This document shows positions 1 to 39,236 of a DNA stretch of 39,236 bases, piece after piece; the first letter of the stretch is position 1, and each line of letters begins with the position of its first letter. The DNA comes from a virus (taxonomy: Duplodnaviria; Heunggongvirae; Uroviricota; Caudoviricetes): the IMG/VR virus record IMGVR_UViG_2718218135_000005; one strand, 5' to 3'. Made by a program: the position numbers and the translations under genes. The notes under the pieces are model-generated. The model did not search any database. It was given only the letters and a program-made list of their open reading frames with translations, and was not told the DNA's origin.

Positions 1-603
1 TTAGACTTCAATCGATTCAGAGATCTCTAACGCATCATCGACTTCAATGCCCAGATAACGTACTGTGCTTTCCAGTTTCTTATGGCCTAACAGAAGTTGG
101 ATCACCCTGAGATTCTTAGTTTTCTTGTAAATCAGGTAAGGTTTTGTTCTTCTCAAGGAATGTGTACTGTAAAGCGAATCTTCGAGACCAAGTTTTGCTA
201 CCCACCTATGAAAAATTCGGTTGTATTGCCGGGTTGATATGTGTTGGTTAGTACCGACCCGAGATCGGAACAAATAGTCTTTACTGCGTAAATTGCCAAG
301 CTTTATCAATGCAGAAACAGCTTCTCTTGTCCCTTTGGTTATCTCAAATTGGACAGGGCTGCCGGTTTTCTGTTGTAGAACCGTAGCTCTGCTTGAAACA
401 GAGCTACCATATGCAACATCAGATACTTTGAGTTTGACTAGATCACAGCCTCGAAGCTTACTGTCCAAGGCCATGTTGAACAGAGCTAAATCGCGCGTTT
501 TACCTTCCAGTTCAAGTCGGATTCGGATACCCCAGATATGAGATATCTGAAGTGGTCTTTTTTGGCCTATGATACGGTCTTTGTTCCACGGTGACGTGTT
601 CAT
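1..603 (-). CDS. short tyrosine-type site-specific recombinase (phage-integrase family, catalytic domain only)
   Basis: ORF-track 202-aa product (TTG at 609 or in-frame ATG at 603); C-terminal HSLRRT ... LLGHKKLESTVRY matches the H-x-x-R ... LGH ... Y pattern of tyrosine recombinases; stop codon at window positions 1-3. Confidence 0.7.
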   Translation of the reverse strand: MNTSPWNKDRIIGQKRPLQISHIWGIRIRLELEGKTRDLALFNMALDSKLRGCDLVKLKVSDVAYGSSVSSRATVLQQKTGSPVQFEITKGTREAVSALIKLGNLRSKDYLFRSRVGTNQHISTRQYNRIFHRWVAKLGLEDSLYSTHSLRRTKPYLIYKKTKNLRVIQLLLGHKKLESTVRYLGIEVDDALEISESIEV

Positions 604-639
604 ACTCAAATCTCCTGCAATGTGGGAGATTTGAGTATG
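601..639. repeat. perfect 15-bp inverted repeat with 9-nt spacer, spanning the recombinase start codon and SD
   Basis: catactcaaatctcc (601-615) and ggagatttgagtatg (625-639) are exact reverse complements. Confidence 0.6.
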
Positions 640-998
640 GTTGTCCTTATGAGCGAGGCGCGGAAGCTCACTTTAGGGTAATCTAATTCACATGTCAGAG
701 GATTTATAAAAAGAGAATAGTGCAGATTTTAGGGATACTTACACTTGCTATGGCATACTTTTTGGGACCCCATCAGTTTAGGGATCTGAATCGCCACAGC
801 TTTGGTAGGCACCTGCTTTATGGTCACGTGCACCCGAAAATCCTGCGGGTACACATGGGTCACGAAAAGTACGAGTCTACAGAAGTTAATTTACGGTTTT
901 TTGCGCTCGATGTGGCTGCCAGCTACCAAGTCCAGTTTACACTGGATACAACTAACGCGCTGTAGCAACTGCGTGGTGGAAGCTGATTAAAGGAGATA

Positions 999-2102
999 AT
1001 GATGTTCGATGTTGACGATACTGCACCCGATACTCCCGACCCCCGTGAACTCAGTCAGGATGTGCAGGCGCTGATCAACAATGGTCTGGATTTTCTGGAT
1101 AAAGCCCGTGAAGAGTTGGAGGCCTCGAAGCCGAAGTTCTCCGTCGTCAGTTTCTGGACTGCGGTCGAGATTTTACTGAAAGTTCCGCTGGCGCACGAAC
1201 ACTGGTCGTTGGTCTGCAGCCCGAAAAAGCCAATAAAAAAGCAGGCTTACCTAGCCGGTGATTTTCAGTCGGTGACCTACGAAGAAACCCGTGAAAGGCT
1301 TAAGGACGTACTTGAAAGCCCCCTAGACAGAGAAACGGACAGTGCTTTTGATAAGGTCAGAAAGCACCGCAACCGCGTAGTTCATTTCTACCACCCCACT
1401 TTCACCGAGGCTGAACAACGTCAAATACTCAAAGAACAAGCTGACGCCTGGTTTGCCCTGAACCGGTTATTAAGGGATGAATGGAAAGTTATCTTCGGTG
1501 TCAAACATAATTGGAAGCTGGCTTTCGGTGAAACTCGTCTGATTAGGGGAAACAAATTTTATGCCGAGGTGCGGTTTAAACAGGTTAAGCCTGAACTCGA
1601 GCAGCTCTCTGAAAAGAATATTCAAATCGGTAACTGCAATGAGTGCCATCAGCATGCGACGGTAACAGGGACTGAAACGACCGGTAATGAAAACCGTAAG
1701 CTTGAAGTTACGCGGTGTAAGGTTTGCACCAGTGCTGTAAGGCAAATTACCCTAGTTTGTCCAGACTGCGAAATACCTCAATTGCTACCTGAGGGAGATA
1801 GTGATTTTGAATGCGAACACTGCGACTACACTTCGGATAGGTATAAACTGCTGGATGAGGAGTTGTTCCACAGTGTGGATGAACAGCTACTCTCCGTATT
1901 TCCTGCTGGATGTACCAATTGCATGACTCCTGAAAGCGTATGTAAATTTGGAGACGGCTATCTTTGCACTCAGTGTTTCATCTATTACACCGAGCTTCAT
2001 GTATGTGGTTGTTGCGGTCACCTGAGCGATAGCGTTCCTGAACTGAGCCATATCCGAGGATGTGAATTTTGTGATGGTGACCAACGTTATTTTGATGACT
2101 GA
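999..2102 (+). CDS. hypothetical Cys-rich protein: helical N-terminal domain with R-x4-H motif, C-terminal array of eight CxxC pairs (predicted zinc ribbons)
   Basis: 367-aa ORF with SD aggag at 991-995; RNRVVH motif in KVRKHRNRVVHFYHP; CNEC, CKVC, CPDC, CEHC, CTNC, CTQC, CGCC, CEFC in the C-terminal half. Function not recognised. Confidence 0.65.
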   Translation: MMFDVDDTAPDTPDPRELSQDVQALINNGLDFLDKAREELEASKPKFSVVSFWTAVEILLKVPLAHEHWSLVCSPKKPIKKQAYLAGDFQSVTYEETRERLKDVLESPLDRETDSAFDKVRKHRNRVVHFYHPTFTEAEQRQILKEQADAWFALNRLLRDEWKVIFGVKHNWKLAFGETRLIRGNKFYAEVRFKQVKPELEQLSEKNIQIGNCNECHQHATVTGTETTGNENRKLEVTRCKVCTSAVRQITLVCPDCEIPQLLPEGDSDFECEHCDYTSDRYKLLDEELFHSVDEQLLSVFPAGCTNCMTPESVCKFGDGYLCTQCFIYYTELHVCGCCGHLSDSVPELSHIRGCEFCDGDQRYFDD

Positions 2103-2484
2103 ATTACCATACATAATCTAGGCTCTTCAGGGATGGGTTGGACAGTCCGCTCCTGGCACATAGCAGTCCTAGAGACACTGGCGTAAAGCCATGGAGGATC
2201 GGTGGGAGGAGGTAAAAATCCTCTCATGCAAAAAATACGCAAAATCGATAACAGTTGGAAATCATTCAATACTCGCACTATCGGAAGTTCACCAGCCAGT
2301 CGTAGCACGTTCTTGCATACGACGTGGCTACGGTCTCAACTCCGTCCCCCACCAATCATGATTGGGCAGTACCAGTACAGCACTAGTAAAAACTGGAAAT
2401 AAGCAGTCTCAGCAAAATACCGGCCAGACGGTGAGAAGACAAAAAAGATACGCAAAGTAACCGCGGCCCTTAGTGACATGAAAT

Positions 2485-2579: not shown

Positions 2580-3275
2580 ATGAAAAAGGAAATACTCAAG
2601 GCTCTTTGCCCTACATGCGGTGGGTTACGTAACTGCACTGTGCATGGGAAGCTAACCACTAGCTGGGAGGATTCCCAATATCCAGTTTATGGGTACCATT
2701 ACCATCACCTACTCCAATGCAATGGCTGTGATACTGTCTTCTATCACCACAACGAACACTTCAGTGAGCATACTACCCACGAATATCGTGATGGTGAATT
2801 TGTAGAAACGCCTATAGATATGATCACTACCTATCCTGCCGCTGAAACATTTCAAGCTCCGATATGGTTATCCAAGCTTGAATCAGTTGATCGTCAGCTC
2901 TTTCAAATATTTAATGAAATGTATTCTTCATATACTTCTGACCATTTCATTCTTTCGTCCATCGGTTTACGGACGATTTTTGATCGAACTGCTGAACTGT
3001 TACAAATTCACCCCGGTTTGCCGCTTGGTGAAAAAGTTGAAAAATTAAAACAAGATGGAGTCATAGGCGACACTGAGGCATGCGTTATATCTTCAGTAAT
3101 TGATGCAGGAAACGCCGCCGCACATCGCAGTTGGAGCCCGAATAAAAGTGAGTTCGAACAAATGCTAGAAGCTATAGAAAGTTTTGTCCAAAGAACTATC
3201 TTGGGCAAAAAATCACTTGAACATATAACCAAACAACTCCCACCTCGGGTTACAAGACCTAAAAATAGTGCATAA
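2580..3275 (+). CDS. hypothetical protein: N-terminal CxxC...CxxC zinc ribbon plus helical C-terminal domain (possibly DUF4145/HEPN-like, from memory)
   Basis: 231-aa ORF; CPTCGG...CNGCD near N-terminus, His-rich stretch YHYHH, C-terminal VIDAGNAAAHRSW motif; AT-rich by eye. Confidence 0.65.
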   Translation: MKKEILKALCPTCGGLRNCTVHGKLTTSWEDSQYPVYGYHYHHLLQCNGCDTVFYHHNEHFSEHTTHEYRDGEFVETPIDMITTYPAAETFQAPIWLSKLESVDRQLFQIFNEMYSSYTSDHFILSSIGLRTIFDRTAELLQIHPGLPLGEKVEKLKQDGVIGDTEACVISSVIDAGNAAAHRSWSPNKSEFEQMLEAIESFVQRTILGKKSLEHITKQLPPRVTRPKNSA

Positions 3276-3301: not shown

Positions 3302-3858
3302 CTATGGTTTACTTGCTACAGGGAATTTTTTATACACCGTTGAAATACCCAGATCATAAATCAGTGCGACTTGCTGCTGATATATTCCCGATTCAATCAA
3401 CCTGCCAGCCTGCCCCCATTGTTCTACTGTCAGCTTTGGCTTTCGCCCACCGTTCCTCCCTTCTTGTCGTGCTGCGGCAAAGCCGCCCTAGTACGTTCGA
3501 CAATAAACTCTCGCTCCATTTCAGCCAGGGCACCCATCACATGAAAGAAAAAACGCCCTATCGGCGTGCTGGTATCAATAGCATCCGTCAGGCTGCGAAA
3601 ATTAACGCCACGTTCGCGCAACTCCTCAACCAGAATGACCAGATGCCGCATACTACCCCCCAGCCGATCCAGCTTCCAGACAACCAGAGTGTCACCTGCC
3701 GATAATGTCCTGAGCAGTTTTTTCAGTCCCGGCCTTTCGGACTTTGTACCGCTTATCTTGTCTTCAAAAATCAGCTCGCATCCTGCACAGTTCAGCGCAT
3801 TACGTTGTAGATCTGTGTTCTGGTCATTTGTTGATACGCGTACATAGCCAATAAGCAT
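3302..3858 (-). pseudogene. Pin/Gin/Hin-family serine DNA invertase, interrupted by a single-base frameshift
   Basis: N-terminal MLIGYVRVSTNDQNTDLQRNAL...VVWKLDRLG...GRFFFHVMGALAEMERE is a serine-recombinase catalytic domain and stops at 3430; the HTH tail (GGRKPKLTVEQWGQAGRLIESGIYQQQVALIYDLGISTVYKKFPVAS) reads in another frame over 3302-3457. Confidence 0.7.
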
Positions 3859-3884: not shown

Positions 3885-4436
3885 ATGATGCCATCTGCTC
3901 GTTATTTCTGCATTTTCATAAACGTTGGTTTGGGAGAAGGTTCGGCATTACCCGTTGGCGTGCCTGTTCCGTGGCCTTCCACCACTCCGCCAACAGGCTG
4001 GCTGAAATGCAACGGTGCGGCTTTTTCTGCTGAAGCATACCCGGAACTGGCAAAGGCTTATCCGACAAATAAATTGCCTGATTTACGTGGTGAGTTTATT
4101 CGTGGCTGGGATGACGGGCGTGGAGTGGATAGCGGTCGTACTTTATTAACGAATCAAGAGCATGCAGTAATTTCTCATAATCATGGAATACCTACAAAAG
4201 TGGGGTCAGTTACTAATATCCCGTATGGAATAGAACAGGTTCTATCTGATGAAACCATTTTTTCATCAGCAAAAACAGTTGGTGTGGATTACTGGTCTAA
4301 CAGTGAAAGAGTTTTTACTTATACCACTGGTGGAAGAAATGGTGCTGAATCAGTGAGTTCACCTGATGCCTCCTCTTTAATTAAAGAAACCAGACCACGG
4401 AACCTGGCATTTGCGTATATCGTGAGGGCTGCATAA
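3885..4436 (+). CDS. alternative tail-fibre C-terminal (variable) domain, unfused and promoterless in this orientation
   Basis: ORF runs through the left crossover site; product has GWLKCNGAAFSAEAYPELAKAYP, a tail-collar-type fibre tip motif; the annotated ATG is probably not a true start. Confidence 0.6.
   Translation: MMPSARYFCIFINVGLGEGSALPVGVPVPWPSTTPPTGWLKCNGAAFSAEAYPELAKAYPTNKLPDLRGEFIRGWDDGRGVDSGRTLLTNQEHAVISHNHGIPTKVGSVTNIPYGIEQVLSDETIFSSAKTVGVDYWSNSERVFTYTTGGRNGAESVSSPDASSLIKETRPRNLAFAYIVRAA
3913..3938. repeat. invertase crossover site (gix/pix/hix-like), left end of invertible segment
   Basis: TTTTCATAAACGTTGGTTTGGGAGAA fits the 26-bp TTxTCxxAAACC-NN-GGTTTxxGAxAA pattern of Gin/Hin/Pin sites. 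Confidence 0.55.
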
Positions 4437-5187: not shown

Positions 5188-6111
5188 TCACCAGTAAATA
5201 TAAACTGCGCCATCTGCTCCGGCACCCGACTGACCCGTTGATGAATTAGGACATAATCCAGCACCGCCACCTCCAGGCCCAACTGCTGATACCGCTTTTC
5301 CGTTAGCTGTATCTCTGAATGAACCTGCTCCTCCGGGGCCACCACCAGAACCACCATTACCAGCTCCCGATGCGGCAGAAGCAATGGAACCTGGAGAACC
5401 AGGCCCAAGCGATGTATTAATTGTTCCCCCGACACCAACTGCGCCTAACCCTCCGGAAGGCTGGCCTCCGCTATAGCCTCCGGAAGCTGACATGTAAGTC
5501 CCGAAACTGCTCGAGCCACCATTTTTACCGTTTACAGAAATACCAGACACAGGCGCACCACCGGCACCAACCGTAATCGAAACACTGTTTATACCAGTTA
5601 AATCTACCAGCCCCTCAGCAACTCCGCCCCCACCACCTCCTCCGCCACATGTAACGGCTGAAGCGGTTGTTGAACCTATCCCTCCTGACGCACCGCCACC
5701 AATAACTTTGACGTAACATTTTCTTCCTTTGCGCAACTCTTCAGGAACAGTCCAGTTTGTTACTCCAGCCGTTGTGAAGGCAACCAGATTTCTGAACCCA
5801 AATGAACCTTCTCCCAAACCAAGGTTTTCGAGAGCTGTTTTCACCGTGCCATCCGATTTGATATCGCCAAACGGATTCTTGCGGCTTAACAGCAGCGCAC
5901 GAAGCGCGGTAAGCAACTGGTCGTGCCGCGCCTTCTCCAGGCTGGCACCGGATGCCTCCACCACGCTGCAGAGTTCTTCCTGCAACATATCAAAGTAGTC
6001 ATCATCCAGATCGGTGGCAGGTGTGCCGGTCTGGGGGTTACCACGAGTAAAACCGTTCTTACCCGCGCCGAACTTATCCTTCTGCGCGGTTTTAGTGTCT
6101 ATGCGATGCAT
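5188..6111 (-). CDS. tail fibre protein (constant N-terminus plus currently expressed variable tip)
   Basis: 307-aa Gly-rich product; reading frame crosses the right crossover site at 5809-5834; follows the baseplate genes. Confidence 0.8.
5809..5834. repeat. invertase crossover site, right end of invertible segment (inside tail-fibre gene)
   Basis: TTCTCCCAAACCAAGGTTTTCGAGAG; its reverse complement shares TTGGTTTGGGAGAA with the 3913-3938 site. Confidence 0.55.
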
Positions 6112-6114
6112 GGA

Positions 6115-6699
6115 TTACTCCGGATATTTAAAAATTACGTAGGTATGCGACGGGCAGAGTTTGTTAAGCACACACTCGACAACGGTGTCGCCCCATATAC
6201 GCAGCGCGGAATCACAGGGATCGCCACATGTCATCCAGGTGGTGTTGGTGGCGGCTGGCATGTTGATCTGCCAGTAATACCGCCATTCCGGCGCATTCAC
6301 CGCGTCAGTACAGGCCGATGAGCAGGTGAAGGTGCTTTTGTCGTATCGCGTGATGGTGGCATCTGGCCTGCCCAGGGCAGCAAGCTGTGCAAGATAAAAA
6401 TCCTCGTTGATGCCGCCCGCCAGGTTAACCTTCGCATCCAGCCGTTGCTGACGCTGGCGAAGGGTCTGCGTTCCCGCCGGAATACATTCATCCGGCAGAC
6501 CGCACAGACGCTCCCAGCGGTTTATCAGTTCAGTGGTGGTGCGCGGATCCAGCTCCCGCATCAGGGCATCCGCACGCTGATGAACGCGGGTTAATGACGG
6601 TGCCGCACCGGCAATCGCCGGATCTCTGGCTGACCACGCCGGACCGGGTGGCAACAGTGCCGACAACAGACGGATGTAATCATCGTTTGTCACGTCCAT
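6115..6699 (-). CDS. tail/baseplate protein, e14 YmfQ-like (DUF2313, Mu gp48 position)
   Basis: 194-aa product; position between baseplate J-like gene and tail fibre; resemblance recalled from memory. Confidence 0.6.
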
Positions 6700-9787: not shown

Positions 9788-11154
9788 TGCACTGGCACCT
9801 TCAGAGGGATCACCGGCACAAAGCCGGGATGCGTAATGGCATTACGCCGGATAATGTCCGCGTCACGCGCCGCGTTATCAAACCAGGTCGCCGCCAGCAC
9901 CAGCGCGGGTAAAACCTCATCCGGCGTGCGCTGAATGATCCGTGCAGACTGTTCAAGGCGCGTGTTGATATCCGCATTCAGATCTGCTTTCACCCGGCGC
10001 AGCGCCAGAAACAGCGCATCACTGGTTGTACGGGACAACTCCTTATCAATTGCCGTATTCAGTGTGTCGCGAATGTCGGTCAGTTCTTCCCACGTTGGCA
10101 GGTCAACCGTGTTTTTCACCGCCGGTGCATTGTTCAGTGCCGGATGCGTGACAGAAGGCCAGCCGGTGCTCTGCGCGGGTGTTGTTGACTGCCCTACTGT
10201 GGCATTCTGCATCACCGCGGAAGTTGTGGGCGCAGGCAATCGTGTGACGGCATACGCCGCTTCGCTGATTGCGGTCGTACGAAGGGTGCTGGCAACCACG
10301 TTACGCTGCTGCGTCGCCGTGGCGGTAGTTTTACTGTCCGTTTTCCAGACGCCGCGCGGTTGCAGATCGCTGCCGAGGCTGACACCGGAAAGCGTTTTGA
10401 TCATGGTGACCAGGTCGCTGTCGTTACCATAAAGGCGTTTCCCGGTACGCCACATTTTCTGCACCTGCTCAACGAAATTTTTGCCTGACGATGGTGGCGG
10501 CAGAAGTACCGAGATATCCCCCTGCAACAGCCTGGCGGCATCCGATACGGCAGAATCCACCACTTTCATCGCATCAGAAACATACCCAAGCATTGTGCTG
10601 GCATTACCGACGACGTCGTTCTGCACAAAATCTGCCACGCCATCGATACTGAAACCACTGAAGCTGTCACTGATGCAGTCATCCAGTGCAGAACAGGATG
10701 ACATCAGCGTCTGCGCCGTCGCCGCACCTGAAGTGGGGTAAGAGAGTTCTCCCGCTTCGACAAACTTCAGGTCAAAGCGGACAATACGCCCTTCACTCTT
10801 CGATGTGCTGACCCGAACTTCCCCGTCAACACAGACTTTCAGCTCACCGTAAGTCGGATGGACAAGCGTGCCGGGACCGGGTTTATTCAGCGCGTCAATC
10901 AGGCGATCGCGCTGGTCAAAGCAGTCATCTCCCACCACATAAGCTGTGATGGACGGGCGGAAAGTGATTTTCCCCAGGTCTTCGGTATAGGGTTTGTCGC
11001 GGTTCGGGTATTCGTGCGTTTCCACACGACGACCGGTTCCCGCACTTTCTTCTTCAACCTTAAACGGCACACCGCGAAATGACGCGTCCTGAAGTCTGTC
11101 TTTCCACGTCATATAAACTCCGTACATAAAAAATCCCACCGGAGTGGGACTCAT
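9784..11154 (-). CDS. DNA circulation protein (Mu N-like)
   Basis: 456-aa product; position directly after tape measure. Confidence 0.6.
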   Translation of the reverse strand: MSPTPVGFFMYGVYMTWKDRLQDASFRGVPFKVEEESAGTGRRVETHEYPNRDKPYTEDLGKITFRPSITAYVVGDDCFDQRDRLIDALNKPGPGTLVHPTYGELKVCVDGEVRVSTSKSEGRIVRFDLKFVEAGELSYPTSGAATAQTLMSSCSALDDCISDSFSGFSIDGVADFVQNDVVGNASTMLGYVSDAMKVVDSAVSDAARLLQGDISVLLPPPSSGKNFVEQVQKMWRTGKRLYGNDSDLVTMIKTLSGVSLGSDLQPRGVWKTDSKTTATATQQRNVVASTLRTTAISEAAYAVTRLPAPTTSAVMQNATVGQSTTPAQSTGWPSVTHPALNNAPAVKNTVDLPTWEELTDIRDTLNTAIDKELSRTTSDALFLALRRVKADLNADINTRLEQSARIIQRTPDEVLPALVLAATWFDNAARDADIIRRNAITHPGFVPVIPLKVPVQ

Positions 11155-13775: not shown

Positions 13776-15271
13776 TATGCAGACTCCTCTGAATACTGAA
13801 GACGGAACTGATTAACCACGGCAAAGACACGCAGCTGGTTAACATAGTCAGGCGGGAACAGCGTGTTCAGGCGGTTCGGATCGCTGGCATCACGCTCCAC
13901 AACCAGGTACTGCTTAAACAGTTCGTAGTTTTCCACAATCCCCGCACGCTCAAGCTGACGGTAGGTTGCCAGCAGTTCCCCTTTGATCACCGCCGGGGTG
14001 ACAATCGCCTGACCGGGACCAAAGCGGGTACCGTCACTGGCAAGCTTGTGACGCCCGTACTTACTGGTAATGACGGATTTCAGTTTGCGCAGTACATACG
14101 CGCTGGTATGCAGCGTCTCACTGTCGAGGTAACTGTTATCCGCAACCCCGTAAGCGTTTTTCCTGTACGTGGTGACATCACGCTGAATGCGTAGTACCCC
14201 GCTTTCGACATACGCCGTTGCCACGCCATGAGACAGCAGGGTCTGTTGTTCGGTCATCGTGAACCGTTTCCCCTTCGGCGCAGGCAGCATACCCACCAGC
14301 TCACCGGTCTGCGTGGGACGTGCCGGATCGTTGCGGATAAACACCGCTGCGCGGGCGGTACGGCTTGCCGCCAGCTCGTCGGCAGGCGTCTGGGTCTCTT
14401 TTTCGTATCCCGCCAGGGTAATGTGCTGCTGGTTAAACTGGTCACCTGCGGTCACCAGTTCTGACAGCGTGCCGATCTTTGCCGTATACACATGACCATA
14501 CAGCTGACGCGCATAGCTCCAGCGACCGCTGGTATCGTTCATCTCGGTCACCAGCGTGTTAACGGAGGCCGTGTCGTTGAACGGCAGGCCGATATAATCA
14601 AACGGCTCATCCGCCATTGCAGCCACCGCGCCGGTGAGAACAGGAGCGCCCGTTCCGGCGGTACCCGTCGCCACGGCAATCTGTACGCCCGCTGGCAGCA
14701 CTTCGCCCCCACCAAAGCCGTAGTAATTGAGGCTGACAGGAATTTCATTCCCGCAAAGCCCCTTATGACGCGCGGTCAGTGTGACCACGCCTGCCGAAGA
14801 TGAGGCAGTAAACGGCAGGGTCGGAACGGCATTGATGGCATCCTGGATACTGCTGGCAATCGTCGCAACGTTATCGCCGTTGGTCACCGGTGCCTGCACG
14901 CGGGTACGTCCCACATAAACATTCACCGTGCCGGTTTCGGTTGCCGCGCCGGTCACCGTCAGCGTAACCGTTGCCGCCGCGCCCGTGGATTCAGGAACGG
15001 CAATCACATACAGCTCGCCAAACGGGTCGGTCTGGCGATAAGCCTCAACCATACGCGCCAGCTGACTTCCCGCACCACAAATCTGGCGTGCATAGTCTGC
15101 CGACGGCATCAGTACCAGACTGTTGGCAACAATCTCTGCACCGTTATTGGCATGACCAATCAGCAGCGATGCTCCGCTGTCCTGTGCAGTATTCGCCGCC
15201 TGATTATCCATTTCCGCATAAAACAGCGGAACCAGCGTATTCGACGGAATGGTGTTAAAGCTTATCGTCAT
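13775..15271 (-). CDS. contractile tail sheath protein
   Basis: 498-aa product; size and position typical of a sheath protein. Confidence 0.8.
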   Translation of the reverse strand: MTISFNTIPSNTLVPLFYAEMDNQAANTAQDSGASLLIGHANNGAEIVANSLVLMPSADYARQICGAGSQLARMVEAYRQTDPFGELYVIAVPESTGAAATVTLTVTGAATETGTVNVYVGRTRVQAPVTNGDNVATIASSIQDAINAVPTLPFTASSSAGVVTLTARHKGLCGNEIPVSLNYYGFGGGEVLPAGVQIAVATGTAGTGAPVLTGAVAAMADEPFDYIGLPFNDTASVNTLVTEMNDTSGRWSYARQLYGHVYTAKIGTLSELVTAGDQFNQQHITLAGYEKETQTPADELAASRTARAAVFIRNDPARPTQTGELVGMLPAPKGKRFTMTEQQTLLSHGVATAYVESGVLRIQRDVTTYRKNAYGVADNSYLDSETLHTSAYVLRKLKSVITSKYGRHKLASDGTRFGPGQAIVTPAVIKGELLATYRQLERAGIVENYELFKQYLVVERDASDPNRLNTLFPPDYVNQLRVFAVVNQFRLQYSEESA

Positions 15272-30572: not shown

Positions 30573-31066
30573 TAAGCCCCCACGTAATTCCCTGACAGAT
30601 ACCACTCATCACCCGATGCAGCGCGCTTGCTGCTTTTCCGTAAGCACCGCTCACGACGCGCCAGAAAATTGTTTCGTTCTGGCTGGGAGTGGCTTTCACG
30701 GAATGCCGCCATCCACACCGTTGCAGCACGACGGTATAAGCCCCTGGACTCCAGTTCTTCAGCCTGGCGGGTCAGGCACAAAATCTCCCGCGGGTCGTTA
30801 GTGCCGACATAGAAATTGCGCACAGGTCTGGTTTCACGAACTGGTTGTGGTTCCGGATCCTGCGCTCTCTCAGTCAGGCGCGGGAAATGTCTGTGTGTAT
30901 CTCCTTCACAACGGTGAGCCACACGCCCACTCTGACGTAACTTGCTTGCTGACTGCAGAACGCGCTGCCGTGAGTAACCTGCAAAAGCATCCGCAATGTC
31001 TCCGGAAGTACAGCCCGGATGGGCTTCAATGAATTTCTGAACGTCATTCAAAAGACTCATGCTCAC
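30572..31066 (-). CDS. hypothetical regulator (PerC/ANR-like?)
   Basis: 164-aa product with RRAATVWMAAFRES helix; weak family guess. Confidence 0.35.
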   Translation of the reverse strand: MSMSLLNDVQKFIEAHPGCTSGDIADAFAGYSRQRVLQSASKLRQSGRVAHRCEGDTHRHFPRLTERAQDPEPQPVRETRPVRNFYVGTNDPREILCLTRQAEELESRGLYRRAATVWMAAFRESHSQPERNNFLARRERCLRKSSKRAASGDEWYLSGNYVGA

Positions 31067-32004
31067 CCCCTGAATCCTGCCGGGATCTGGCTGTAGTCCA
31101 CATTGTCATAACTGGCTTTGAAGTACGGGTCTTCGCGTTTTTCTGTGTACGTGCTGACGGACGGCGATAAGCGCAGGGAAAGCTCATCCCATTTTTCCCG
31201 CAGCTTCGACGGGCTGAGCACGTTACGGCACCAGAACGGATCGCGGCTGACGCGGCTGTACATCTCGCAGATTTGTTTGTGAGTACGACCATCCTGCACA
31301 CACATCAGGCGAATTTCGTTTGCCCAGGCTGTCCAGTTCGGTTCTTTGGGACGAACCACCTCGCCGTCACATTCGGCGGCCTGCTCGTACAGGGCAATGA
31401 TTTTTTTCCAGAGCCACTGTGCGCAGGTCAAATCATCCTGCGTCCCCCACTGGCGTTTTTTAGGGCTGAATACAACCGCATCAGGATGGCGAGTTAAAAA
31501 ATCCTGTTCAGCCGTCTGCGTGTCCGGTTGCGAAGCGTCCGGACGAGAAGGTTTTTTATCTGACGGATCATGTTTTGATTTTACTGACGGATCCCCGCCA
31601 GATTCTGACGGGTGAAAACCCGCTTTTTTGCCAGATTTCGACGCATCAAATTTTGACGGGTCAGATTTTGATGCGTCAGATTTTGACGGGTCAGAATCTG
31701 ACTGTTGAGAAAATGCCGCTGCCTGAAGCTTCGCAACGTTAAGCTGATAAACATTCGACGCATTGCGGTTACCCTGGCGACGCGCCTTACGCGTTAACCA
31801 GCCTTCTGCTTCCAGCCGTGCGATAGCCGTTCTGACGGTACTCATCCCCGCGCCAATCTGGCGGGCAATGGTTTCAATTGATGGCCAGCACACACCTTCG
31901 TCATTACTGAAATCAGCCAGGCGGGCCATAATTGCCACGCTGGATAATTTCATGCCTGACGCTGCGCAACCATCCCATACATAGCCGGTTAATTTAGTGC
32001 TCAT
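31063..32004 (-). CDS. replication initiation protein (O-like, iteron-binding)
   Basis: 313-aa product with N-terminal winged-helix-like region and central pentapeptide repeats DPSKSDASKSDPSKFDASKS encoded by tandem DNA repeats. Confidence 0.6.
   Translation of the reverse strand: MSTKLTGYVWDGCAASGMKLSSVAIMARLADFSNDEGVCWPSIETIARQIGAGMSTVRTAIARLEAEGWLTRKARRQGNRNASNVYQLNVAKLQAAAFSQQSDSDPSKSDASKSDPSKFDASKSGKKAGFHPSESGGDPSVKSKHDPSDKKPSRPDASQPDTQTAEQDFLTRHPDAVVFSPKKRQWGTQDDLTCAQWLWKKIIALYEQAAECDGEVVRPKEPNWTAWANEIRLMCVQDGRTHKQICEMYSRVSRDPFWCRNVLSPSKLREKWDELSLRLSPSVSTYTEKREDPYFKASYDNVDYSQIPAGFRG
31575..31695. repeat. iteron-like tandem repeats (candidate replication origin) inside the replication gene
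   Basis: Three consecutive 15-bp units ATTTTGA(C/T)G(G/C)GTCAG at 31651-31695, plus degenerate copies upstream. Confidence 0.5.
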
Positions 32005-37982: not shown

Positions 37983-39236
37983 TTACGCACGAATGGTGTA
38001 ATCACCAATGCCGATCCACTTGTAAGTGGTCAGTGCTTCCAGCCCCATTGGGCCACGCGCGTGGAGTTTTTGTGTGCTTACCGCCACTTCCGCACCCAGA
38101 CCAAACTGGCCGCCGTCGGTAAAACGCGTAGAGGCGTTAACGTAAACAGCGGACGAATCCACTTCGTTAACAAAACGCTGGGCGTTGCGCATATCGCGGG
38201 TCAGGATCGCATCGGAGTGTTGTGTGCCGTGTTCACGAATATGGGCGATGGCATCGTCAAGATCGCTGACGATTTTGACGTTCAAATCTAATGACAGAAA
38301 CTCATCGTCATACTCTTCGGCTTTAACAGCAACCACCTTCGCAGGGCCTGCCTGCAACTGCGCCAGTGCAGCTGCATCTGCGTGTAATGTCACGCCGCTT
38401 TCCGCCATTTGTTTGCTTAATGCGGGCAGGAAGCTATCGGCGATGTTTTTATTCACCAGCAACGTTTCAACCGTATTACATGTGCTCGGACGCTGAGTTT
38501 TCGCGTTGACGATCACTTTTAATGCTTCAGCGATCTCTACACTTTCATCAACGTAAATATGGCATACGCCTATACCACCTGTGATCACCGGGATTGTCGA
38601 CTGTTCACGGCACAGTTTATGCAAACCAGCGCCACCACGCGGGATCAGCATGTCGATGTATTTATCCATACGCAGCATTTCACTGACCAGCGCACGGTCA
38701 GGATTATCAATCGCCTGCACGGCACCCGCCGGTAAGCCGCAGGATTTCAGGGCGTCCTGAATCACCGCCACCGTTGCAGCGTTAGTGCGACACGTTTCTT
38801 TGCCACCGCGCAGGATCACCGCATTACCGGTTTTCAGGCACAGCGAAGCGACATCAACCGTCACGTTCGGGCGCGCTTCATAAATCACGCCAATAACCCC
38901 CAGCGGTACGCGACGACGCTCAAGACGCAGGCCGCTGTCCAGTACGCTGCCATCGATTACCTGCCCCACCGGATCGGCGAGGTTACACACCTGGCGCACA
39001 TCATCGGCAATGCCTTTCAGCCGTGCGGGCGTCAGTGCCAGACGGTCAAGCATCGCTTCGCCAAGGCCATTGGCACGCGCGTCAGCAACATCCTGGGCGT
39101 TAGCGTTGAGGATGATTTCGCTTTGTGCTTCCAGTTCATCGGCGATTTTTTCCAGCACGCGATTTTTTTCGCGGCTGGAGAGTTGCGCTAATTTATACGA
39201 GGCTTGCTTCGCGGCAATGCCCATTTGTTCCAGCAT
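37983..39236 (-). CDS. proA: gamma-glutamyl phosphate reductase
   Basis: 417-aa product starting [28 protein letters not shown] matches E. coli ProA as recalled; start codon at the last bases of the window. Confidence 0.95.

Follow-up and report, generated by a model that had tools for sequence, protein, structure and literature searches.

A 200-residue tyrosine recombinase and two classes of short sites in a candidate gene-cassette system carrying the defence gene HEC-08

Two natural platforms on which single genes move as cassettes stand closest to the locus considered here. In integrons, a tyrosine recombinase, IntI, of about 320 amino acids (aa) serves arrays of short, highly diverse and individually mobile cassettes, many of them devoted to phage defence; two inverted simple sites make up each cassette junction, an imperfect palindrome of 60-70 bp, and an excised circle with gene and junction can re-insert. 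In Acinetobacter, pdif modules bounded by alternating inverted sites are moved by XerC/XerD, with no dedicated recombinase. Here we describe int, a gene for a 200-aa tyrosine recombinase at the left end of a 39,236-nucleotide (nt) stretch, referred to below as the window, that is filed as a Caudoviricetes record (IMG/VR IMGVR_UViG_2718218135_000005), together with the palindrome over its start codon and the neighbouring gene HEC-08. Our analysis indicates that int is probably the site-specific recombinase of a gene-cassette system, with the palindrome acting as a brake on its expression; the array organization, junction design and predicted excision circle would all be shared with integrons. 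Whether this amounts to a real and undescribed system for capturing cassettes, one that parallels integrons in function and is widespread in Proteobacteria, with two heterospecific site classes and with int sitting in a junction under a hairpin, we regard as evenly balanced. No description of such a system was found in open-access full text, searched also with the site sequences and protein accessions, subscription-only papers lying outside the scope of that search.

The sites bounding the putative cassettes are about 30 bp long and appear in sequence logos as AAYGTCCGCTNY, a 6-bp centre and RNAGCGGACRTT, that is, 12-bp palindromic arms (core GTCCGCT / AGCGGAC) in 12-6-12 dyad symmetry around an asymmetric centre, with the consensus GTCCGCT-N-Y-(TGGCAC/TCGCTC)-R-N-AGCGGAC. 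A scan of the surroundings of int homologues in 86 loci (1.58 Mb in all; 80 loci each from a different species) with the pattern GTCCGC-NN-YTSGCWCA-NN-GCGGAC, at most three mismatches being allowed, returned 314 sites, against 0 in shuffled sequence. The pattern permitted all four combinations at the centre; 146 sites belonged to class A (TGGCAC), 160 to class B (TCGCTC) and 8 were mixed. When int is placed on the plus strand, B sites lie on the plus strand in 153 of 158 cases and A sites on the minus strand in 136 of 142. Cargo between an A site and the next B site fills 127 intervals of 0.46-10.5 kb, and 36 composite junctions were counted in which an inverted A site lies 38-43 nt beyond a B site; cassette junctions often have this make-up, with a linker of 14-18 nt between the two sites. 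The recombinase gene itself always lies between two sites of its own, termed B_int and A_int, both with degenerate int-proximal arms, and cassettes occur on both sides of it.

In several of these respects the system differs from integrons. The arms here are of the GTCCGC type, whereas integron cassettes have GTTRRRY cores (attC RYYYAAC/GTTRRRY); the centres form two heterospecific classes, and a target can be a solo simple site in double-stranded form; int is located inside the array, within a junction, and moves with the cassette. Cassette open reading frames (ORFs) show no orientation bias (108 plus, 95 minus), which makes a common Pc promoter unlikely, and the sites lack attC-type cores. 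The resemblance to pdif modules lies in units of one to a few genes, in sites of about 28 bp that are alternately inverted, in shuffling between replicons and in mixed cargo (in pdif, for example, resistance genes and toxin-antitoxin pairs). Unlike those modules, however, the present ones travel with a dedicated small recombinase, their sites are unrelated to dif, with nearly symmetric arms and with orientation and class set by the centre, and they occur on chromosomes as well as plasmids of Enterobacterales and other Proteobacteria.

Evidence that these units move comes from natural variation around the sites. The window matches the chromosome of Escherichia coli DETEC-P61 at 100%; positions 1-2164 are repeated in hundreds of E. 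coli genomes (99.6% identity) and on a Pantoea plasmid (99.2%), and Klebsiella and E. coli plasmids have in common with the window only position 1 to about 660. In pairwise comparison, a 2.2-kb block with int and HEC-08 is 99% identical in DETEC-P61, a genomic island of Nissle 1917 and the Pantoea plasmid pPANA10, with unrelated flanks in each; both block ends carry GTCCGC-NN-CTGGCACA, and the breaks fall at CTGGCACA. On the right, homology with Nissle 1917 and the Pantoea plasmid stops directly after the CTGGCACA of the window's class-A site, which closes the HEC-08 cassette and forms the right end of the 2,186-bp unit; in Nissle 1917 this end is a perfect 12-8-12 palindrome, GACAGTCCGCTC-CTGGCACA-GAGCGGACTGTC. 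An empty site was computed for the Nissle-type insertion by joining the left flank, through one CTGGCACA, to the right flank (908 nt). It is matched in a single stretch, at 100.0% identity, by 11 complete E. coli genomes (with at least 80% covered in 27), which indicates that int and HEC-08 are gained or lost as a 2,186-bp unit, by a conservative crossover inside CTGGCACA. For the insertion in the window itself no such empty site turned up, since the cassettes beside it are different ones. In the window, the unit is inserted at an A site, within a small array beside a prophage remnant and not inside the prophage.

Whole cassettes also appear to be replaced between fixed flanks. At one chromosomal locus, strain ECZP248 has a B site, 978 bp and an A site in place of the order B, HNH, A, int, B, HEC-08, A seen in DETEC-P61. 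The flanking DNA of the two strains otherwise matches at 99%, with breaks located in the B and A centres, and the A site that closes the HEC-08 cassette in the window borders another cassette in ECZP248. Enterobacter (locus L021) and Ewingella (locus L045) share a 2.4-kb cassette at 99% identity. The match runs up to the last base of the centre, and homology stops exactly at both centres; in Enterobacter the cassette adjoins a composite junction, and in Ewingella it meets B_int and the palindrome directly. For divergent int alleles (91-94% identity) and for plasmid copies, similarity to the window breaks off at 654-664, the position of the B_int centre. Taken together, natural variation shows crossovers to fall inside the A and B centres, the sites to be of the tyrosine-recombinase core type, with same-class copies in direct repeat and precise occupied and empty states, and a solo double-stranded A site to be able to act as a target. 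A comparable arrangement has been engineered for recombinase-mediated cassette exchange (Cre with loxP/lox2272, Flp with FRT/F3), in which sites with common arms and incompatible spacers permit a clean swap and prevent self-deletion, and the ECZP248/DETEC-P61 replacement looks alike; the difference is that the present arrangement would be natural, with exchange taking place presumably by a double crossover or by sequential integration and excision.

On the proposed mechanism, two directly repeated sites of one class (A x A or B x B) would recombine and release a circle carrying the gene and the junction, and this circle could re-insert at any site of matching class. Since each cassette is flanked by two incompatible sites with the same arms and different centres, exchange of a whole cassette between them would be possible as well. 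The direct orientation of same-class sites predicts excision, integration and cassette exchange, and not inversion. For Nissle 1917 and ATCC 25922, both of which carry the unit, the predicted junction of the 2,186-bp circle is GACAGTCCGCTC-CTGGCACA-GGACTGCTG (also written GACAGTCCGCTC-CTGGCACA-GGACTGCTGTTG), and the predicted empty site is AACGTCCGCAT-CTGGCACA-GAGCGGACTGTC.

Int, the presumed recombinase of these cassettes, is encoded on the minus strand from ATG at 601-603 to TAA at 1-3, and the PGAP annotation contains the identical coding sequence. It belongs to the tyrosine recombinase superfamily: the sole Pfam match is Phage_integrase (PF00589; residues 35-184, E 1.6e-19, 70.8 bits against a cut-off of 27.1), and the hexad R51, K79, H148, R151, H174 and Y183 (pattern R-K-H-R-H/W-Y) is invariant in 14 homologues and aligns with the residues of XerD. 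A sequence search of the PDB with Int returned XerD only (E ~1e-5). Pfam detected no separate core-binding or arm-binding domain, as a first, sequence-only reading of this DNA had proposed in describing a recombinase reduced to its catalytic domain. The same reading had set a broken piece of a conventional integrase against its own view, and this alternative fails: the gene is intact, its hexad is invariant, and Int is not a pseudogene or a fragment. Among close homologues some 200 aa long there are more than 8000 clusters at 90% identity, spread at 76-96% identity across Enterobacterales, Proteus, Providencia, Idiomarina and Pseudoalteromonas, and 604 further 50%-identity clusters match Int at E<=1e-30. 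Distant homologues in alpha- and beta-proteobacteria show about 50-66% identity to a family member.

Comparison with named recombinase families places Int outside each of them. Against the integron integrase models it scores 18.6 bits, where the cut-off is 265 (TIGR02249), and 17.1 where it is 435 (PRK15417), and it lacks the IntI-specific insertion, so that the suggested comparison with integron-type enzymes came out negative. The view that Int is not a phage integrase held: it has no N-terminal domains, no tRNA lies nearby, and the site-bounded unit is 2.2 kb with one cargo gene, unlike the units of phages or of integrative and conjugative elements (ICEs). Assignment to the IntKX subgroup of a published recombinase classification was rejected, IntKX being ICE integrases. 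The accompanying suggestion, that Int acts on nearby inverted repeats in the manner of FimB/FimE, has fared less well, same-class sites being direct. An invertase of that kind would flip a promoter or a segment and so switch HEC-08 on and off, and the idea draws on the size of about 200 aa without a separate core-binding or other N-terminal DNA-binding domain and on the divergent transcription of int and HEC-08. The similarity is at superfamily level only, however, with 25.7 and 18.6 bits against NCBIfam cut-offs of 222 and 221 (PRK09871, PRK09870); HEC-08 is flanked by sites of different classes that do not mix, no locus carries the cassette inverted between the same flanks, and the internal orientation of int-HEC-08 is identical in about 350 genomes. 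We therefore hold an invertase to be exceedingly improbable.

The gene is common. It was found in 903 of 5426 complete E. coli genomes (17%), Nissle 1917 and ATCC 25922 among them, in one to three copies each; 927 of the 969 places are chromosomal, and hundreds of Enterobacterales plasmids carry int. A role in plasmid multimer resolution, of the ResD/rfsF or Cre/loxP kind, is at odds with this chromosomal distribution and with the many sites per locus and variable cargo; a RepFIB-/ResD-type plasmid resolvase was likewise rejected, the plasmid contexts being variable cargo and not replicon backbone. Another candidate relative, the gene labelled 'xerC' beside mcr-10 on plasmid CP056561, encodes a different, 331-aa recombinase, and mcr-10 there has no flanking A or B sites. 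Several loci (L012, L028, L035, L056, L071 and L074) have two int copies within a few kb, each with its own palindrome, the two in L035 being 790 bp apart; arrays can thus hold more than one recombinase module.

That Int is the enzyme recombining A with A and B with B is suggested by the fixed polarity of the sites around int, the specialised sites on either side of it, its travel with a cassette as the minimal unit, and the presence of similar arms beside distant homologues. On a competing account int is a mere passenger, and a host enzyme such as XerC/XerD acts on the A and B sites, much as happens in the dif modules of Acinetobacter. Cassettes that have both kinds of site and no int do exist, and dif modules alternate inverted sites without a dedicated recombinase. 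Yet the sites are unlike dif, cer and psi (by our own comparison) and have symmetric arms, their polarity relative to int is fixed in 289 cases against 11, and int is always framed by a specialised B_int and A_int with degenerate inner arms. In addition, GCGGAC-type arms adjoin distant int homologues in other proteobacterial classes, namely beta- and alpha-proteobacteria (Paraburkholderia, Roseomonas), and Int itself reaches 51 and 33 bits where the XerC/XerD cut-offs are about 330. The passenger account is accordingly improbable in our estimation, and we return to Int as the presumed enzyme.

Several points nevertheless speak against Int as the dedicated enzyme of a cassette system. The scanning motif held GC fixed at the centre and admitted only S or W at two positions, and other classes of site may exist; of the sites found, about half are solo and not paired. 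Int-less cassettes on plasmid CP056561 imply either that the enzyme acts in trans or that there is room for a host enzyme, and it is formally possible that a recombinase other than Int acts on the A and B sites. The AlphaFold model of Int, built on a 14-sequence alignment, has a pLDDT (predicted local distance difference test) of 55, too poor for a fold search, and adds no structural support.

Three of these records deserve a word of their own. Plasmid CP056561 (pRHBSTW-00399_2), which has no copy of int, carries solitary A/B-flanked cassettes at 47282-48124 (L086) and 14392-14984 (L088), encoding one peptidase and one GFA-family protein. A Roseomonas mucosa plasmid (L093) has two int homologues, at 5496-6140 and 9971-10615, each preceded by a RelE/ParE pair, with catB nearby. 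In Sinorhizobium (L095), the homologue at 5989-6621 adjoins ubiquitin-like defence-type genes (ThiF, multiubiquitin, DUF6527). GCGGAC-type arms lie directly 3' of the stop codons of the L093 and L095 homologues.

The start of int is covered by a perfect 15-bp inverted repeat with a 9-nt loop, as the sequence-only reading had noticed. Its arms are CATACTCAAATCTCC (601-615) and GGAGATTTGAGTATG (625-639). In the sense of int, the 3' arm is exactly GGAG-ATTTGAGT-ATG, that is, the Shine-Dalgarno (SD) sequence (612-615 on the plus strand), an 8-nt spacer and the start codon, and the 5' arm places an anti-SD and an anti-AUG on the int mRNA. Chance does not explain such a repeat: by a hand estimate, 39236 x 21 x 4^-15, roughly 8e-4 perfect 15-bp repeats with a spacer of up to 20 nt would be expected in 39 kb. 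The RNA hairpin has a free energy of -22.5 kcal/mol, and its 141-nt context a folding z of -3.6 relative to shuffles. The palindrome is kept in 75 loci, at every int start. Across its 31 distinct sequences, 91% of cells are paired, against 27-44% for slid registers, compensatory changes occur at 2 of the 15 stem pairs, the anti-AUG (CAT) and the anti-SD C opposite the second G of GGAG are invariant, and all variants fold, at -6.5 to -26.8 kcal/mol. No Rfam family matched the hairpin.

Only 47 nt of conserved DNA separate the B_int centre from the ATG, nearly all of it palindrome and site arm, and no conserved promoter is apparent in them, all DNA upstream of that centre being specific to the cassette; int transcripts therefore probably begin in the upstream cassette. 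The promoter-like match listed in Table 1 lies in cassette DNA upstream of B_int, so that its transcript would include the whole hairpin. Such transcripts, entering from the upstream cassette, would fold with SD and AUG paired to the anti-SD and anti-AUG arm, which would keep Int scarce and insulate int from read-through. A similar device is known from fold-back inhibition of transposase translation in IS10 and IS50, where a hairpin that pairs the ribosome-binding site and start codon forms only in transcripts entering from outside. In both cases a mobility enzyme would be kept scarce and immune to read-through, the difference being that the gene that would be guarded here is a tyrosine recombinase in a cassette array. 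An RNA hairpin limiting int translation (translational occlusion) is, in our judgement, a slightly better than even proposition; among the three options offered by the sequence-only reading (recombination site, operator, translation-blocking hairpin), it fits best.

The operator has kept a lesser standing, as part of a broader alternative in which the palindrome works at the DNA level, whether bound by a dimeric regulator or by Int in autoregulation, or as an accessory or cruciform element of B_int. Its perfect dyad symmetry suits this, as does its distance of 2 nt from the inner arm of B_int; G.U and A.C departures from pairing are equally common, as a strandless constraint would have it, and an inverted loop in locus L073 (see below) points to DNA-level events at the repeat. 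What an operator leaves unexplained is that the arms are exactly the SD-to-AUG stretch and its complement. Moreover, the half-site drifts with compensatory changes while SD/AUG pairing stays, it is unlike the GTCCGC arms that Int presumably binds, and the 2.2-kb unit carries no regulator gene. On this balance, a DNA-level element seems to us rather unlikely.

A recombination site, the remaining option, would make the palindrome the core site of Int in a 15-9-15 arrangement, serving either to resolve plasmid multimers or to invert DNA in concert with a partner copy. The geometry is loosely like that of loxP or FRT, the repeat adjoins the gene, as in rfsF/ResD or loxP/Cre, and the L073 loop is inverted. 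The second copy or half-site that such a role would call for was sought and found neither in the window nor in 1.83 Mb of related loci, except before additional int genes, and no mapped junction lies in the palindrome, each one being located in an A or a B site; the palindrome thus belongs to the int module, has no partner and is not a crossover site. Resolution of plasmid multimers is, besides, irrelevant to the chromosomal majority of copies. We consider this option very improbable.

The translational hairpin has difficulties of its own. G.U and A.C departures from the stem are about equally frequent (23 and 20 cells), so that covariation fits a hairpin in the int transcript and a dyad acting as DNA (an operator or a cruciform, for example) equally well. 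Shuffle statistics of 2-5/500 are weak, most of the sequences being close relatives, and the sole promoter match towards int (698..670) is no better than chance. A perfect 15-bp stem might also block translation almost fully, which raises the question of how Int gets made. SD-pairing hairpins at distant homologues in Paraburkholderia, Roseomonas, Sinorhizobium and Pseudosulfitobacter, with weak statistics (z 0.2 to -3.8), are suggestive at most.

In L073, a metagenome-assembled genome of Leclercia sp., the 9-nt loop of the palindrome (~9962-10003) is inverted, reading TGCAATGTG for CACATTGCA with unchanged arms; a small inversion has occurred across the perfect repeat, perhaps through template switching. 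The same locus has an array of opposite polarity 4-6 kb downstream.

The cargo of the cassettes is diverse, with 203 distinct protein clusters among 241 ORFs. Defence genes include Tmn, Dsr1, Lamassu (LmuA/B), SIR2-HerA, PARIS (AriA), Septu (PtuA), GmrSD, NsnA and HEC-02/05/06; transporters (MFS), regulators (LysR, AraC) and oxidoreductases (SDR) also occur. Should the proposed system be real, it would join integrons and dif modules as a third natural platform for gene cassettes, one found in clinically central bacteria, and would be a major route by which HEC-08, Lamassu, Dsr1 and PARIS pass among chromosomes, islands and plasmids of E. coli, Klebsiella and their relatives. It would also offer a concrete mechanism for single defence genes hopping between loci; in a paper on 'embedded' defence genes, the insertion mechanism was left open by its authors. 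The A and B sites would then be a sequence signature for finding new accessory and defence cassettes, the very small recombinase with its two orthogonal site classes would perhaps be useful for cassette exchange, and the hairpin over the start codon would be a compact example of silencing a mobility enzyme in an array prone to read-through.

The gene captured in the window, HEC-08, joins an N-terminal HEPN domain to C-terminal zinc-ribbon repeats. It is recognized by PADLOC (PDLC04162, E 1e-173 over residues 12-366) and as DUF3644 (E 2e-71), and its translation contains RKHRNRVVH, the HEPN Rx4-6H motif, in keeping with membership of HEC-08. Anti-phage defence by this single gene has been shown experimentally and is lost on mutating the histidine of the HEPN motif, H128 (bioRxiv 10.1101/2024.01.29.577857). 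The early suspicion that the cargo is a separate mobile unit proved sound, in that the HEC-08 cassette is bounded by the B site, which is its boundary with the int module, and the A site, and moves together with int. Several records (WP_074014622.1, plasmid homologues; 13002-14102 in L001) carry the RefSeq/PGAP label 'hsdR' for this protein, which looks like a propagated misannotation.

Between the palindrome and HEC-08, some 390 bp had been described as lacking a convincing ORF. There is indeed no intact gene at 640-998, but the interval is not empty: it holds B_int, the promoter-like match and the remains of a second, unrelated tyrosine recombinase. This relic, which lies in the non-coding leader of the cassette, is 82% identical (E 9e-31) to a recombinase on plasmid pKqs_SB610_5, with the catalytic Tyr replaced by Asn. 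On several Enterobacterales plasmids, including pKqs_SB610_5, the intact 251-aa gene lies directly upstream of HEC-08 homologues, which suggests how the cassette originated: to judge from these sequences, it was evidently captured from a context like that plasmid pair. The features of the locus are collected in Table 1.

Table 1. Features at the left end of the window and just outside it, numbered by window position
Feature	Position	Strand	Basis
int, 200-aa tyrosine recombinase, catalytic domain only	1..603	minus	ORF/translation, PF00589, RKHRHY
Perfect 15-bp inverted repeat, 9-nt loop	601..639 (arms 601-615, 625-639)	minus	Sequence, RNA folding, conservation
B_int, class B, TTCCGCGC-CTCGCTCA-TAAGGACA	642..665, centre 650-657	minus	Motif scan; homology ends
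Sigma-70-like promoter match CTGACA-17-TAAAGT towards int	670..698	minus	Consensus match only, not above shuffle expectation
C-terminal 57-residue relic of unrelated ResD/Xer-like 251-aa tyrosine recombinase	792..965	plus	BLASTP
HEC-08, N-terminal HEPN (DUF3644) and C-terminal zinc-ribbon repeats	999..2102	plus	PADLOC, DUF3644
Class-A site, GTCCGCTC-CTGGCACA-TAGCAGTC	2145..2168, centre 2153-2160	plus	0 mismatches to core motif
A_int, partner A site	-41..-18, outside the window (L001 11959-11982)		Motif scan

In the wider chromosome, the cassette array lies between the paoD-LysR region and a prophage remnant; PGAP places int between an HNH endonuclease gene and HEC-08, followed by the Mu/e14-like remnant. 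The possibility that int-HEC-08 is part of the prophage was rejected, since related prophages begin their homology at about 2230 and have an integrase of their own; in the window, a 417-aa prophage ORF at 37983-39236 is presumed to be that integrase. Prophages of this kind integrated at dusA show homology from about 2230 only. Within 2161-2338, about 70 bp after the A site are unassigned, and a fragment of about 100 bp follows that is 89-91% identical to HK97/HK106 and Stx-phage DNA and is annotated as a partial 'capsid protein'. The gene at 2580-3275 encodes a DUF4145 protein with a CxxC-rich N-terminal region, found in related prophages beside a DinI-like gene and a phage integrase; an accessory or defence role in the prophage is conceivable, and both this gene and the prophage are outside the cassette element.

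Farther into the prophage, 24-nt inverted repeats at 3920-3943 and 5804-5827 (96% complementary) bracket 1.86 kb with opposed tail-fibre and tail-fibre-assembly genes, adjoined at 3302-3858 by a frameshifted serine 'recombinase family protein'. The segment looks like an invertible host-range switch of the Mu G, P1 C or e14 P type, which is probably locked because its invertase is a pseudogene. At 31632-31706, five head-to-tail 15-nt units (CAGATTTTGACGGGT-like) lie inside the minus-strand prophage ORF 31063-32004 and resemble replication-origin iterons embedded in a replication gene.

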